Shown here: piece by piece, positions 6,822 through 58,110 of the stretch
Layout of the letters: the number at the start of each line of letters is the position of its first letter
Numbering within the stretch: position 1 is the first letter of the stretch
Assembly (NCBI GenBank): GCA_963791555.1
Contig: CAWBSQ010000005.1
Location: 3,346 to 67,345, forward strand
Source of the DNA: an uncultured Simkaniaceae bacterium
Lineage (GTDB): Bacteria > Chlamydiota > Chlamydiia > Chlamydiales > Rhabdochlamydiaceae
Length of the DNA stretch: 64,000 bases
Reading direction: 5' to 3'
Translations under genes and position numbers: made by a program
Notes under the pieces: generated by a model
Database searches by the model: none
Seen by the model: the letters and a program-made list of their open reading frames with translations, nothing else
What the model was told of the DNA's origin: nothing

Positions 6822-7280
6822 TTATTTCACGATTAGACGGGTTCCTTCTACCTTGACAACAGTGATCTTTGTCCCTTGACTTAGATAGCCTGCGGAGGAG
6901 ACCGCTTGAAACTGTTCTCCATCGATCATGACATACCCGGAAGGCTTTAGATCGGTCACGGCAGCCCCCGTTCGGTTGAACAGCGATGAATCATAACCCA
7001 AGACTTGAAATCCTTCCTGGCTAGTGCGGAGATAAAAACTATCCCCTTTACCACTTTTTTTGACTAGGTGGAGGGCAATTCGGCAGGCAGTCATGACCAG
7101 TAACACCAACCCTAAGACGAAAGCAAGCAGCCAGCCGATAGCCAAGGTCATGGCTATAAGTGCGATACTCCCTACCAGCACAAGGCAGCCCAGCACGGCA
7201 AGAAGGCCTCCCGGAAGAAAGAATTCCACCATAACAAAGAGCAATCCAAGGACGGCTAAGGCAATACCTAAGATGAACAT
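6822..7280 (-). CDS. nfeD: NfeD-family membrane protein
   Basis: Three TM helices plus a C-terminal OB-like domain (VTDLKPSGYVMIDGEQFQAVS...GTKITVVKVEGTRLIVK), immediately upstream of floA. Confidence 0.8.
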   Translation of the reverse strand: MFILGIALAVLGLLFVMVEFFLPGGLLAVLGCLVLVGSIALIAMTLAIGWLLAFVLGLVLLVMTACRIALHLVKKSGKGDSFYLRTSQEGFQVLGYDSSLFNRTGAAVTDLKPSGYVMIDGEQFQAVSSAGYLSQGTKITVVKVEGTRLIVK

Positions 7281-7418
7281 GGCCAGAAGGATACAAGAAA
7301 GAATAAATATTGTAAAACCTTAATCAAATTACAATTAATTACTTCACTAATTAATAAATAATATAATTAAAATTACTGCACCTATTGATTATTAACTGAC
7401 TGTTAAGTATAATCAATA

Positions 7419-7835
7419 GTGAGAAAAACTAATAATTTTAAAACAATGTCAAATACTAAAATTAAGAAAGTTATGCTTCCAGCGACGCCACCACCCGTCG
7501 TACCATCCGTTGCTAAGCCGGCCCTGATCAATGCCAAGATCGCTGAGATCGAAAAGCTTTGGCAAGGGCTCAATCGTCAGCAAATTGCGACCTGGCAAAG
7601 GCGGAATGAAAAGATCGAGAGTTTTATCGCTCTCGTCAAGGACTTAGCCGGGGATGATGAAGAAAAAACCGAAAAGATCCAACGTGTCCTAGATGATTTT
7701 GAACCATTCAAAAACAGCTCGACCGCTGTGAAGACATTGATCAATATGGTGTGCAATTATGTCGATCTTCCCGAAAAAGTCCAAGACCTTGCACATCCAA
7801 CACTTGCTAGCGACATCTATCGCACTACGCAATAG
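7419..7835 (+). CDS. hypothetical protein
   Basis: 138-aa ORF preceded by an AT-rich intergenic region. No motif recognised. Confidence 0.5.
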   Translation: MRKTNNFKTMSNTKIKKVMLPATPPPVVPSVAKPALINAKIAEIEKLWQGLNRQQIATWQRRNEKIESFIALVKDLAGDDEEKTEKIQRVLDDFEPFKNSSTAVKTLINMVCNYVDLPEKVQDLAHPTLASDIYRTTQ

Positions 7836-7928
7836 TTGTAATAAAGTTTATTAACTTTGATGTTTTTTGATCGTTTATTTAAGTCATAACATTGATATAA
7901 TCTTCCTCATCTAAAATATGAGGATATT

Positions 7929-9146
7929 ATGTTGGGTTATGTAAAATCTTTTCTTCCCAGCCTAGGTGCAAATTCTTTTACGACTTCAGTTATCGATGGG
8001 GTTAAAACTAGCGGTCTTGCATGCTACTATCAAGCTTACGCACCCAAGAATGCTGGCACAAAAGATTATCAGACCTTACGAACGATCTTCAACGAATGCT
8101 CTCGTAACCCACATACAACTGCAAAAATCTCTAGCCGAGTCAAACAGCAGTTCTATTCTTTGCCCTCGAATATTCGATACAAGCTTTATAACCAAATTCA
8201 TGAATTAGCAGGCAAACCTAAGACGGCAAATAACCAAGATTGGGGCAAACGCCACCTCTTTGATCAACCTAAGCGATTGGCCAATGCAGTAAAGCAAATT
8301 GCTTTTAAAAAATTCGATTCGCTTGATGCAGTGCAAAAAGAATCCATTGGTCGTCAGATCGCTATTAGCCGCGGCAAATCAACGCCCAATGACACTGTAG
8401 ATCTCATGACGAAAATCGCGTGGGGAAAACGTCATGCAAAAGACGATGCAGCCATTTTGTTGAATTGTTTTCACTCTTCTCCTGCCCTTTACGATTATGA
8501 AGCGACTCTTAAAAACAAATCGAGTCTATACAGTCTTGGACGCAAAGAACTTCCAAAAGGACAAATCAGTTACATCAATGGCATGAATACGCCGCTCGAT
8601 CGAGCTAAAGGCAATGCGTTCAAATTTTCTAAAGACATTGGTAGAAACTACAATTTCCATTGTGTTCATGCAGCAACCAATGGGAAAACTCAGGACTATC
8701 ATGAAATCGTTCTACTGCGCAATGGAGTTATAACCAACCCGGCGCGATTGCTACATAAACGCTGGGACAATTTTTTTGACAAATGCAGCCCAAAGGAGAA
8801 ATTCCTCCAAATTTGCTTCAGTAAAGGAGCCTCGCATGTGCGCGCAGCTCTAGAATCCTATAAATCAGAGCGGCGCAAACGCATCGTTGTGCTTGCTTTA
8901 GCACCTGCTGAATTGATGCCAAAAGGGCTTTGTCATCGCGTTACGCATATCATTAAGAAGAATGACGGAGTACCATTCACACTCCCAGGCAATGCGGCAC
9001 GTATAGCAAAAAAGGAAACGGATATCGTACTCCTTGCTAAAGGTTCAAACCCTCACAATCCCCACGCGGCGGATTACACCAAAGCAGCCTCTAAAGAGGT
9101 CGACCGGTTTCTAACCCAAGACTGCGGCATCAAATTACGTAAATAA
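7929..9146 (+). CDS. hypothetical protein
   Basis: 405-aa ORF with no confident family assignment. Confidence 0.6.
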   Translation: MLGYVKSFLPSLGANSFTTSVIDGVKTSGLACYYQAYAPKNAGTKDYQTLRTIFNECSRNPHTTAKISSRVKQQFYSLPSNIRYKLYNQIHELAGKPKTANNQDWGKRHLFDQPKRLANAVKQIAFKKFDSLDAVQKESIGRQIAISRGKSTPNDTVDLMTKIAWGKRHAKDDAAILLNCFHSSPALYDYEATLKNKSSLYSLGRKELPKGQISYINGMNTPLDRAKGNAFKFSKDIGRNYNFHCVHAATNGKTQDYHEIVLLRNGVITNPARLLHKRWDNFFDKCSPKEKFLQICFSKGASHVRAALESYKSERRKRIVVLALAPAELMPKGLCHRVTHIIKKNDGVPFTLPGNAARIAKKETDIVLLAKGSNPHNPHAADYTKAASKEVDRFLTQDCGIKLRK

Positions 9147-9329
9147 ATCGTGTCGTTGAACTTTTTCCACAAAAATAAAAGTTTCTTAAGGAGCCTCCAA
9201 ACACTTAATATTCAACAATAATTATTTTAATATTATTAACGCCTTGTATATTATACAAATAATTACAAATAGATTCTATCTATACAATGCTTTATAATAT
9301 TTATTAAAAAACACTAATTTAGGTTATCA

Positions 9330-55051: not shown

Positions 55052-55122
55052 AAAGAATACCCTAAGAGGGGTTTCATAATTGACATGTGGCCTTGCAGCA
55101 GACCTACTTATAGCCTGTATCA

Positions 55123-55145
55123 AGTTACTGGTTACATTACGAATT
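55123..55145 (+). repeat. left 23-nt direct repeat bracketing the two-gene cassette
   Basis: agttactggttacattacgaatt versus agttactggttatgttacgaatt at 57853-57875 (21/23 identical). Confidence 0.85.
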
Positions 55146-55211: not shown

Positions 55212-56387
55212 CTACACAGTCAGAGCCTGAGATGTTAGTTCATCAGAGATTTCTTCTACGGGTTGACCTTCAAAATCGATATAAGCAACGATCTCTTTCG
55301 GATTTGGATAGGTTTTTTCTTCAAAAAAAGCTTTCGATGCATTTTCTCTAGCTTTTTCAGAAGTCACTCTATCCGCCTTATCTTTATACTTTCGAAGAGG
55401 TATGGGTATTTCACAATATTCTTTGAAAGAATCTTTTTCCAGATGAAGCATTTTAATAATTGCAAGACGAGAAAATTCCATTAAATCAAATAAATCTTTA
55501 AGTTCTAGCTTATCAATCGGACTTTTTGTTTCTGCATTCAATACTGGAAAATCAAGTTCTTTAAGATATCCATGCAGGTCAGGGGCTCGGTGATCATGCC
55601 AAATTGACAAAAGACGAGATTTAATCTTCTCCTCCGACATTGCTTTATATCGCTGAGGTCCAGTTATTCCCTTCAAAAATAGACTAAATCGTTTTGAGAC
55701 CTTTTTATCGTGATCATGTGAAGGATTTCCGGCGAAAGAATCAATTAAAGGGAATAATTTAGAAAATGATGTGCTAGCATAGATTGAACGTTCCCATAGC
55801 GTTGCTTCAAAGAAAGCCTTCAAATTAAAATACGGACGAGCCGCTGTTTTTCTGGAGTTGAATATTTCAACAATCCGAGAAAAATAAAATCCAGCCTGCT
55901 TTAACTCTTCCTCGTTATAACAAAACTTTCCACCATTTGTATTACCAAAAAAAGGCTCAGCGCATATATTGGACCTGTGTCCAATTCTACTTGGGTGTGT
56001 ACCTACAAATCCCTCTTCTAATGTTCCATATGAAAATGCTCCTGCAATACTAATGTAGAGGGGTTTGACAAGGTATAATGCCTCGATAATAAACCAAAAA
56101 TAACGATCTCTCAGTTCTAATGGAACTCTGCTGTCAATTTTAATGCAGGTATTGCATATCCCCCTCACTAAACCATATCCTGGATATACCCAAGCAGCTA
56201 ATCCTATATGCGTTTCGACAGAAGAGCCTTTCGGAGCAGCACAAGCTAATGCATGCTGTGGAGTTAAAGTAAGGTAAATCCCAGGAGCTAATTCTATCGG
56301 GAGATTTGAAGAAAAGGACCAGTCAAATGGAAAGTTTAGAAATAGGTAGCATCTATCATCAACAGAAAATTGATCATCTAATTGCAT
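55212..56387 (-). CDS. hypothetical protein with a C-terminal HEPN-like R-x4-H-G motif (cassette gene 2)
   Basis: 391 aa. WHDH-R267-APDL-H272-G lies in a predicted helical C-terminal half. No other motif recognised. Confidence 0.6.
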   Translation of the reverse strand: MQLDDQFSVDDRCYLFLNFPFDWSFSSNLPIELAPGIYLTLTPQHALACAAPKGSSVETHIGLAAWVYPGYGLVRGICNTCIKIDSRVPLELRDRYFWFIIEALYLVKPLYISIAGAFSYGTLEEGFVGTHPSRIGHRSNICAEPFFGNTNGGKFCYNEEELKQAGFYFSRIVEIFNSRKTAARPYFNLKAFFEATLWERSIYASTSFSKLFPLIDSFAGNPSHDHDKKVSKRFSLFLKGITGPQRYKAMSEEKIKSRLLSIWHDHRAPDLHGYLKELDFPVLNAETKSPIDKLELKDLFDLMEFSRLAIIKMLHLEKDSFKEYCEIPIPLRKYKDKADRVTSEKARENASKAFFEEKTYPNPKEIVAYIDFEGQPVEEISDELTSQALTV

Positions 56388-56431: not shown

Positions 56432-57547
56432 TCATTTTGCAAAACCAGCATGTTGCAAAGCGCTGATCTTATTTTCTGCGTCAACCTCTTGGATGAGCTT
56501 TTGAACGTCAATCACCTCTGAAGGTTTCTTTCGATCCTTATCCACTAGAATCATTACTCCAGGGACAACTGGAATACGCTCAGGGACTGTAATCGCCAAT
56601 TCTTTTCGTTTGTGCATCCCTTCTAATATTCCATTTACGTATTTGACACCTCGAATGATCGCTTTCAGTCTTTCCTTTTGCTTCTTCCAATCGCAGGTGA
56701 TAACTCTAAGAGGGCGCCTTACTTCCTTCAAGGCAAATCCAGTGACAAGAAACTCAGCAAGATCCCCATCTAACAGCTCCCTGCCAGCTCCTCCTTTATA
56801 AAGATTAGGGCGCTTGAGCCATTGCTCCTTGGGTTTAGTACTGGTAGAGACCCCAAGTCTTTCCAGTCTGGCGAAAAGTCTAGCTCCCGAAAGATTTGAC
56901 CCGTCTTGCATCTGCATGAGATAGCTATGCAAAAGTCGCAAAAGTATATTATGCTCAAACTGTTCTACATCAGCCCCATCGCCAACACGCCCTACTAACC
57001 ATACGCGGCTCATTAGGACATGCCAAGCCAAGTGCTTTACCAACAGCTCAAAGGCAAACCCTTTGTCTCCTTGCTCCAATTCTTTTTCCCAATCCTCCAA
57101 CAAGCCTGAAATACTCAAGGCATGTTTGTGGCAAGGATTTTCTCGGCGCCATTTCACGGACTTCGCTATGATTTCCTTTCGATCGATGACCTGAAGAAAA
57201 AGGTGCTTTAAGGCTTCCATTGTCACCAGAATCTCTCTTGATAAGAAACTAATAGATTCATGTAATAGTTTGTTTACATCGGTAGGATCGCACTGCAAAG
57301 CGTCCTGCTGAAAACTTCTCAACGTACGATACAAAGCTTGCGGCATTGGGAAATAGGCATCTATCCGATCTTGATACGTTTGCGGAAACGTATCTATAAG
57401 ATTTCCCAAATGGATCTGCTCAAGAAATCCAGCAGGAGTATCAACTGTCGTGTGGTCACCCCTAAATTCAGGTATTAGCCTATCGCTTTCGCTTATCAAC
57501 CAATCCCATTTCAATTGAGTTTTGAGAATTCCTTCTCTTCCGATCAC
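56432..57547 (-). CDS. hypothetical protein (cassette gene 1)
   Basis: 371 aa from a GTG start. The frame stays open 28 codons further upstream with protein-like sequence but no start codon. 44 nt upstream of gene 2. Confidence 0.55.
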   Translation of the reverse strand: MIGREGILKTQLKWDWLISESDRLIPEFRGDHTTVDTPAGFLEQIHLGNLIDTFPQTYQDRIDAYFPMPQALYRTLRSFQQDALQCDPTDVNKLLHESISFLSREILVTMEALKHLFLQVIDRKEIIAKSVKWRRENPCHKHALSISGLLEDWEKELEQGDKGFAFELLVKHLAWHVLMSRVWLVGRVGDGADVEQFEHNILLRLLHSYLMQMQDGSNLSGARLFARLERLGVSTSTKPKEQWLKRPNLYKGGAGRELLDGDLAEFLVTGFALKEVRRPLRVITCDWKKQKERLKAIIRGVKYVNGILEGMHKRKELAITVPERIPVVPGVMILVDKDRKKPSEVIDVQKLIQEVDAENKISALQHAGFAK

Positions 57548-57719
57548 ACCAAATCGATCTCTAACACCATTATCAAAAACTAATAACCAATCGATAGTAA
57601 AACCTCTTCCTAAACCGAATTTTTCTTGAACAGAAAGAGTCTACCCAAAGTTTTCTATTACCCGCAATCGCTTGTTCCAGAATATAATTGCCTTCTTTTG
57701 CTTTGGGATTTTCCCTTAA

Positions 57720-57854
57720 TTATTTTAGAGATTCCTTACCCTTCAAATCTTTCAGCCAAGCAAAAAGACATTCTGTGGCTCGAACATCATCCTCATTATA
57801 GTTGACGATGTCCTCTAAAATCTCCCGATTGCCCATTTCAAGCCATTCCTCCAG
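57720..57854 (-). pseudogene. C-terminal remnant of an RNase H-fold 3-prime-5-prime exonuclease (YprB/PolB-exo-like)
   Basis: LEEWLEMGNREILEDIVNYNEDDVRATECLFAWLKDL matches the Exo III-type ...I..YNe.Dv.at..L..WL ending of that family. The reading frame begins exactly at the right direct repeat, which carries in-frame stops. Confidence 0.45.
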
Positions 57855-57875
57855 TTACTGGTTATGTTACGAATT
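57853..57875 (+). repeat. right 23-nt direct repeat bracketing the two-gene cassette
   Basis: See 55123-55145. About 150 nt from the 3-prime end of tRNA-Ser. Confidence 0.85.
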
Positions 57876-58023: not shown

Positions 58024-58110
58024 CGGAAGAGGTAGGATTCGAACCCACGGTCGGCTTGCGCCGACTGCTGTTTTCAAGACAGCCGCATTAGGCCACTCTG
58101 CCACTCTTCC
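58024..58110 (-). tRNA. tRNA-Ser(UGA), type II with long variable arm
   Basis: GGAAGAGTGGCAGAGTGGCCTAATGCGGCTGTCTTGAAAACAGCAGTCGGCGCAAGCCGACCGTGGGTTCGAATCCTACCTCTTCCG. The acceptor, anticodon (GCTGT/ACAGC), variable (GTCGGC/GCCGAC) and T stems all pair. No encoded CCA. Confidence 0.95.

Follow-up and report, generated by a model that had tools for sequence, protein, structure and literature searches.

Our analysis of a 64,000-nucleotide (nt) stretch of DNA from an uncultured Simkaniaceae bacterium (contig CAWBSQ010000005.1, positions 3,346 to 67,345; here called the window) suggests that gene 2, an intact open reading frame of 391 amino acids (aa) on its minus strand (55212..56387), codes for a stand-alone HEPN-like ribonuclease (RNase). 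Gene 2 is the founding member here of an unannotated protein family, which probably represents a new and very divergent family of HEPN proteins. An earlier interpretation made from the letters alone (the sequence-only reading) had proposed a HEPN assignment from an R-x4-H motif; the conservation of the two motif residues, their placement at the end of a helix and the weak profile matches of a distant subfamily now speak for that proposal, while neither fold nor profile searches have given proof of it. A role of gene 2 in defence or as a toxin, proposed by analogy with known systems, is plausible without being probable. The most complete version of our interpretation is more tentative still: gene 2 would belong to a new HEPN family whose N-terminal sensor is structurally without precedent, and would work alone as an RNase for abortive infection or exclusion. 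Plasmids, tailed prophages and tRNA-linked cassettes would have spread it among environmental chlamydiae, which live as obligate intracellular bacteria, and its relatives would occur in soil bacteria that are free-living.

Gene 2 is a real gene under purifying selection, as deduced from its comparison with an 89%-identical orthologue in another Parachlamydiales genome (L003; ratio of nonsynonymous to synonymous substitution rates, dN/dS, 0.135; dS 0.39). A word-indexed search retrieved 39 homologues, mostly from metagenome-assembled genomes (MAGs) of Parachlamydiales and none carrying a name, and an exhaustive phmmer search of 1.8 billion cluster representatives retrieved 52. The motif R267-A-P-D-L-H272, immediately followed by G273, lies at 55572..55589 on the minus strand and forms a candidate catalytic dyad; the minus-strand translation of 55557-55634 reads EEKIKSRLLSIWHDHRAPDLHGYLKE, which places R267 to H272 at nt 55589-55572, exactly where the sequence-only reading had located them. 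That reading had also warned that such a motif carries little information, and rightly so: with 19 R and 10 H among its 391 residues, the protein contains two R-x4-6-H matches (258-264 and 267-272) for about 1.5 expected, so that the bare motif is no more than chance yields. The conservation of R267 and H272 is, by contrast, far above chance. Across 35 close homologues, W263, R267, P269, H272, G273 and K276 are invariant. In a broader set of 43 family members sharing less than 70% identity with one another, some of them only about 20% identical to the query, invariance is limited to four columns (R307, H272, F192 and P109) and R267, L211 and G116 are each kept in 42 sequences, followed by G273 (39), R184 (38) and R233 (36). 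Both residues of one given pair would fall among the seven best of 391 columns with a chance of about 3e-4. Loss of R267 or H272 from homologues had been named beforehand as a reason to abandon the HEPN proposal; both are conserved almost perfectly, which speaks for a catalytic dyad. Two further positions are always acidic in the 43 sequences: position 216 (D in 29, E in 14), where D216 (55740..55742, minus strand; helix 204-218) is a candidate for the upstream acidic residue of HEPN domains, and position 304 (E in 39, D in 4). The latter belongs to E304-F-S-R307 (55467..55478, minus strand; helix 293-314), whose two conserved residues may be further components of the active site or of a dimer interface. 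The conserved polar core of the family consists of this Arg/His/Arg set plus two acids, and no multi-acid cluster of the kind found in metal-dependent nucleases occurs among the conserved columns of the 43 homologues.

Structure predictions place this core in a two-domain protein. An AlphaFold2 model computed for the query from 35 sequences (predicted local distance difference test, pLDDT, 82.6; predicted template modelling score, pTM, 0.85), and a second, independent model of the distant member P0105 (pLDDT 86.4, pTM 0.88) predict the same architecture. With secondary structure assigned by DSSP, both have an N-terminal alpha/beta domain (residues 1-150; 55938..56387, minus strand), in which F16, P69-G70, W98, P109 and G116 are conserved and for which neither profile searches nor Foldseek found any sequence or structural neighbour. 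The sequence-only reading had already noted that the first 230 residues match nothing; this holds, although the domain boundary actually lies near residue 150-155. The C-terminal domain is all-helical in the query model (residues 153-355; 55323..55931, minus strand), with helices at 159-176, 183-198, 204-218, 226-238, 252-266, 293-314, 318-325 and 337-355. R267 comes right after helix 252-266, and H272 starts a low-confidence loop (272-289) leading to helix 293-314. The helical surroundings initially ascribed to the motif are thus confirmed in part. In the P0105 model, R238 lies within helix 226-242, four residues before its end, H243 is located just past it and the next helix spans 258-279. 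In known HEPN domains the motif lies where helix 3 ends and the loop to helix 4 starts, in a region that is frequently non-helical; inserts are common between helices 2 and 3, and a conserved acidic residue often occurs upstream in helix 2, often as E-x3-[KR] (PMC3710099). The predicted placement of the motif matches the helix 3/helix 4 description in both models. The family fits a HEPN-like core if helix 183-198 is taken as helix 1, 204-218 (with D216) as helix 2, 226-238 as an insert, 252-266 as helix 3 and 293-314 as helix 4.

The connection to known HEPN sequences runs through a distant subfamily that includes non-chlamydial bacteria, for instance a Terriglobales MAG, and aligns with the chlamydial clade over its full length (hhalign, 320 columns, probability 99.96%, E 5e-39). 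Its pattern, '...LFAALEALF...RVSxFL...W(L/I)xxEYxxxRNxLAHG...LHEIVRL...', contains the motif Y-x-x-x-R-N-x-L-A-H-G, that is, the canonical R-N-x3-H-G form, and the E of 'LEALF' aligns with D216 of the query. The hidden Markov model (HMM) libraries of Pfam, NCBIfam, PADLOC and PHROGs were run on the query, on its close (35) and distant (about 25) homologues and on consensus sequences of the clades. Two members of the distant subfamily gave sub-threshold Pfam matches to HEPN families: P0113 matched HEPN_Apea (E 0.016, residues 204-276 on positions 56-133 of the 136-position model) as well as DUF4145 (E 0.14), and P0112 matched DUF4145 (E 0.037, positions 7-76 of 88). Apart from DUF4145 (PF13643), listed in the Pfam HEPN clan CL0291, no Pfam family was matched by two or more members. 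For the subfamily's HMM consensus there are precisely three Pfam matches, all falling on the motif region: DUF4145 (E 0.0042), MauJ (E 0.006) and HEPN_Apea (E 0.09, or 0.013 for the domain alone). The sole Pfam match of the all-family consensus is HEPN_Apea (E 0.48), and the consensus sequences of the other clades matched only unrelated Pfam families, with E values of 0.19 at best. In the subfamily consensus, the conserved E, N and H fall at about positions 23, 66 and 70 of the DUF4145 model, where a bona fide chlamydial DUF4145 protein (E 1e-11) has them too. Besides MauJ, DUF4145 and HEPN_Apea are the sole Pfam families to match the motif region of this subfamily. In DUF4145 and the Apea-like HEPN family (PF18739) the order of features is alike, with an acidic residue on a helix ('LE.L'), about 45 residues and then R-N-x3-H-G; as in the gene-2 family, the motif stands at a helix end and is followed by a loop and a final long helix. 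Both often come joined to N-terminal domains of variable kind and are often carried in defence or mobile contexts (PMC3710099). The gene-2 family differs from them by an extra invariant acidic-x2-R on the last helix, and the query clade itself matches neither. For its HEPN membership gene 2 depends on a transitive and borderline link; this membership is likely but unproven, strengthened rather than demonstrated. Many HEPN families were first proposed on similarly borderline, motif-anchored evidence (PMC3710099).

Several results weigh against this assignment. The query and the whole chlamydial clade matched no HEPN model in the four HMM libraries, even with E values up to 10, and searches of PDB sequences with three family profiles gave no match. 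The Pfam matches of the distant subfamily are all under the gathering cut-offs (11-18 bits versus 23-24), the best bit scores, found in that subfamily only, being 17.9 for DUF4145 (cut-off 23.1) and 16.4 for HEPN_Apea (cut-off 24.4), and they emerged from about 70 scanned sequences. In the query clade the motif arginine is followed by A, G or P (A268 in the query) instead of the usual HEPN N, D or H; across the 43 homologues the residue at this position is N in 8, H in 7, A in 6, G in 6, Y in 5 and S in 5. E-x3-[KR] is not seen in the query clade either, which has no K or R at +4 from position 216. Foldseek searches with the query model against PDB and BFVD, and with the P0105 model against PDB, returned nothing at E <= 0.001, and no HEPN protein was among the matches listed for either model. 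The structure prediction that the sequence-only reading had called for has put the motif at a helix end in both AlphaFold2 models and yielded no HEPN fold match; the HEPN-fold prediction it expected did not come from Foldseek, which retrieved no HEPN structure, or from the HMM scans, in which no HEPN model was matched at cut-off. More generally, none of the models in Pfam, NCBIfam, PADLOC or PHROGs was matched at its cut-off by a family member, whether close or remote. The Foldseek result is weak negative evidence because HEPN domains are notoriously divergent. The best Foldseek matches, MalA' and Cse1/CasA (E 0.06-0.1), were taken as noise, and a relation with Cse1 was rejected (TM-score about 0.1, probability 0.13).

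Other comparisons were uninformative or negative. The family aligned by hhalign with a profile of 30 chlamydial HepT sequences at 0.1% probability, a test without power because the control alignment of DUF4145 with HepT also gave 0.1%; the same probability was obtained for the family against two DUF4145 sequences, and pairwise Smith-Waterman scores against two DUF4145 proteins were not above those of shuffles. A search for PF18739 across genome G000 found no match, and an Apea search of the Chlamydiota genomes found three weak matches below cut-off, to a protein with coiled coils, to an adenylate kinase and to a short part of a 728-aa frame. On the residue pattern alone, the Fic/Doc, HD, HKD/PLD, tyrosine recombinase, histidine phosphatase (RHG) and HUH folds were rejected, as their signature motifs are missing.

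The failure to match any HEPN protein by fold or HMM is also what one would expect if the helical domain were not HEPN at all. In such a case it would be a new fold in which the Arg/His/Arg/acid set serves another phosphate chemistry or nucleic-acid binding, on behalf of a mobile element, for example as an accessory factor of replication, partition or maintenance beside the DnaB_C-like ATPase. The strongly conserved E304-x2-R307 after the motif is no standard HEPN feature and would find a place in this scenario, as would the organization of one plasmid-like lineage (L001, L004 and L005), where the gene-2 homologue lies 39-49 nt downstream of a gene for a 287-aa DnaB_C/AAA_25 ATPase (in L004, ATPase gene at 7098-7961 and gene-2 homologue at 8001-9182). 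However, the ATPase neighbour is limited to that lineage, and in L006 an insertion sequence (IS) separates the two genes. Moreover, the prophage, island and chromosomal copies lack replication genes, the family shows no similarity to plasmid records, and it bears no relation to the 456-aa protein encoded after the large DnaB-like gene in L004 (hhalign 0.2%). The sub-threshold Pfam matches on the motif region, limited to HEPN-clan families and MauJ, also argue against it, and we consider this alternative, though the strongest one, unlikely. Dyads of an ATPase with a HEPN protein have been proposed as toxin-antitoxin pairs (PMC3710099), and the arrangement in the plasmid-like lineage resembles them.

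If gene 2 does encode a HEPN protein, R267 and H272, aided by D216, E304 and R307, would form a metal-independent RNase centre, to be completed by homodimerisation bringing together two R-x4-H motifs, as in other HEPN enzymes. The N-terminal domain, as a sensor or regulatory module, might keep the RNase off until a signal arrives; once activated, the enzyme would cut cellular or invader RNA. This activity would probably serve in abortive infection, keep out competing elements or enforce addiction to the carrying element. The gating by the N-terminal domain is proposed by analogy with ApeA and RnlA. ApeA, a single-protein HEPN anti-phage system with its active site on helix 3 and no partner gene, is switched on by a ligand that binds between its N-terminal domain and its HEPN domain (bioRxiv 10.64898/2026.01.26.701840). 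It offers the best functional analogy to gene 2: a single polypeptide in which an N-terminal part without catalytic function precedes a HEPN domain at the C-terminus. Unlike gene 2, ApeA has three domains and assembles into decamers or dodecamers (bioRxiv 10.64898/2026.01.26.701840); it is about 600 aa long versus 391 aa, and the N-terminal domain of the gene-2 protein differs from ApeA_NTD1. The Pfam and PADLOC models did not find in the query the combination of HEPN_Apea above cut-off with the beta-rich ApeA N-terminal domain. No ApeA structure appeared among the listed Foldseek matches and no PDB sequence matched, although the searched copies may not include ApeA. Ligand activation and tRNA targeting are known for ApeA, not for the gene-2 family.

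RnlA and LsoA combine one or more alpha/beta N-terminal domains with a C-terminal HEPN domain carrying R-x4-6-H at a helix C-terminus and, upstream of it, extra catalytic Arg and Glu residues; these toxins are prophage- or plasmid-borne and anti-phage, and RnlA is active as a canonical dimer (PMC8266594). The gene-2 protein has a similar size and a similar domain order. No sequence or Foldseek similarity to RnlA or LsoA was found, and RnlA has a dedicated antitoxin gene, rnlB, whereas the gene-2 family is devoid of any conserved neighbour. The HepT (DUF86, PF01934) toxins of HEPN/MNT pairs share the R-x4-H motif with gene 2, in their case as R-x4-H-x-Y. By contrast, they are single-domain proteins of about 120 aa, always paired with an MNT gene, while gene 2 encodes 391 aa and has no MNT neighbour. 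HepT/MNT pairs occur in 70 of 301 Chlamydiota genomes, often in multiple copies, but the genome of the window has none. As for the Csm6/Csx1 (CARF-HEPN) proteins, which are marked by a Rossmann-like CARF domain at the N-terminus and a setting of CRISPR or cyclic-oligonucleotide genes, Foldseek matched none of their structures, and no CRISPR or cyclase genes occur in any of the neighbourhoods examined.

Gene 2 is an accessory, mobile and patchily distributed gene. Members of its family occur in 10 of 400 Chlamydiota species genomes, representing ten genera over several families, almost always as a single copy, and clustering of all the neighbours at the loci of gene-2 homologues revealed no conserved partner gene. 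The genomic contexts are diverse. Plasmid-like copies are found near Tn3, resolvase, integrase and copper-resistance genes; other homologues adjoin phage portal, Mu-F, capsid and terminase genes; the Terriglobales relative is part of a small element that also bears an excisionase-type helix-turn-helix gene and a rolling-circle Rep gene; and one copy stands alone in a chromosome. A tblastn search against plasmid and phage collections gave no match. That the gene is carried by itself, as cargo, on plasmids, on prophages and on small tRNA-linked islands in Parachlamydiales suggests the role in abortive infection, exclusion or addiction proposed above.

Some of these elements deserve a description of their own. 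The L004-L008 element, which carries the homologue P0018, contains a copper-resistance block (OEP, multicopper oxidase, DUF2231, CsoR-type repressor and P-type ATPase). The P0018-bearing element was found in 89 blocks of a public collection, including a TARA ocean sample, an unusually wide spread. In two Parachlamydiales contigs (L009, 1-7726 and 16022-17185; L027, 1-3084), the gene-2 homologue is located beside tailed-phage genes for portal, Mu-F, Pa193_gp24, cement, major capsid, tail terminator, large terminase and integrase proteins, and is also accompanied by an ATPase_2/AAA_16 gene and an ankyrin-repeat gene. From their gene content, these contigs look like a tailed prophage in an environmental chlamydia.

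If our interpretation is correct, the HEPN superfamily would gain a family missed by Pfam, NCBIfam, PADLOC and PHROGs as well as by Foldseek searches of PDB and BFVD. Its HEPN-like domain would be joined to an N-terminal domain that resembles no known structure and may serve as a trigger-sensing module of a new kind. The interpretation would also point to conflict between mobile elements inside environmental chlamydiae, whose immunity and toxin systems are poorly charted because these organisms are not amenable to genetic handling; in its most complete version, gene 2 would be among the first element-borne immune effectors recognised in Chlamydiota. What would be new is the family and its N-terminal module; the superfamily itself is very well known. 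The practical gain would be modest, as HEPN toxins already constitute a very large and well-studied class and the mechanism proposed is conventional.

In the window, gene 2 is part of a 2.7-kilobase cassette bounded by 26-nt direct repeats identical at 23 of 26 positions (left copy, at the gene-2 end, 55120..55145; right copy, 57850..57875). It occupies a variable slot on the 3' side of a tRNA-Ser(UGA) gene (58024..58110, minus strand). The site is empty in the same-genus genome G408, where about 250 base pairs separate a flanking 245-aa gene from the tRNA-Ser gene, versus about 2970 in the window; the intergenic DNA of G408 is too diverged for a base-level comparison of the empty-site junction. 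Gene 1, which codes for 371 aa (56432..57547, minus strand) and belongs to a separate unannotated family, lies 44 nt upstream of gene 2. The cassette with both genes is also present in L003 (6369-9300), with 88-89% aa identity, this time beside a tRNA-Asn gene. The flanks of this copy are unrelated to those of window segment 55120-57752, the DNA similarity running precisely to the left repeat's outer edge on one side and to about 57752 on the other; L003 thus lacks the right repeat and a small exonuclease-like remnant (57720-57854).

The conservation of both genes together in a second genome, next to another tRNA gene, their position 44 nt apart on the same strand and the purifying selection acting on each of them (dN/dS 0.18 for gene 1) might indicate that they form a toxin-antitoxin or defence pair, in which gene 1 would provide the antitoxin or the sensor for the gene-2 nuclease. 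Nevertheless, gene 1 was found only in the window and L003 among about 25 loci with a gene-2 homologue, and gene-1 homologues exist without gene 2, beside zeta-toxin, SocA_Panacea, RhuM and Bro-N genes, which implies that the pairing is lineage-specific. In addition, the start codon used by gene-1 homologues has been lost from the copy in the window (start region 57547-57620, minus strand). The homologues begin with M(G)RGFTIDQLL..., where the window has a TTA (Leu) codon; the frame is open upstream of this codon and contains no ATG, GTG or TTG, and the first usable start is a GTG at 57547, 22-23 codons downstream of the start of the homologues. We therefore regard such a pair as improbable and retain the stand-alone HEPN-like RNase as our preferred interpretation. 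Still far less probable is that the gene-2 protein is a secreted effector acting on the eukaryotic host cell, as many accessory proteins of Chlamydiae do and as the ankyrin-repeat genes near the homologue in L009 might evoke, since its predicted fold begins at about residue 11, leaving hardly any disordered N-terminal signal, it has no conserved secretion-related neighbours, and full-length relatives exist in non-chlamydial bacteria, a Terriglobales MAG for example, on small elements with a rolling-circle Rep gene.

A scan for promoters and terminators detected no more sites than in shuffled sequences. The slot between the 245-aa gene and the tRNA-Ser gene is a recurrent variable region, occupied by unrelated cargo in a genome of another genus (G358; L089, 932-3609); this cargo encodes a beta-propeller-like repeat protein of 403 aa together with two small paralogues that appear to be secreted. 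In the genome G303 (L036, 8013-8594), a gene-2 homologue persists in degraded form, as a fragment of 193 aa containing an in-frame TAG, about 1.1 kilobases from a tRNA-Val(GAC) gene and within a tRNA-Ser / pheS / rplT / infC / thrS-like / tRNA-Val block that is conserved in the window too.

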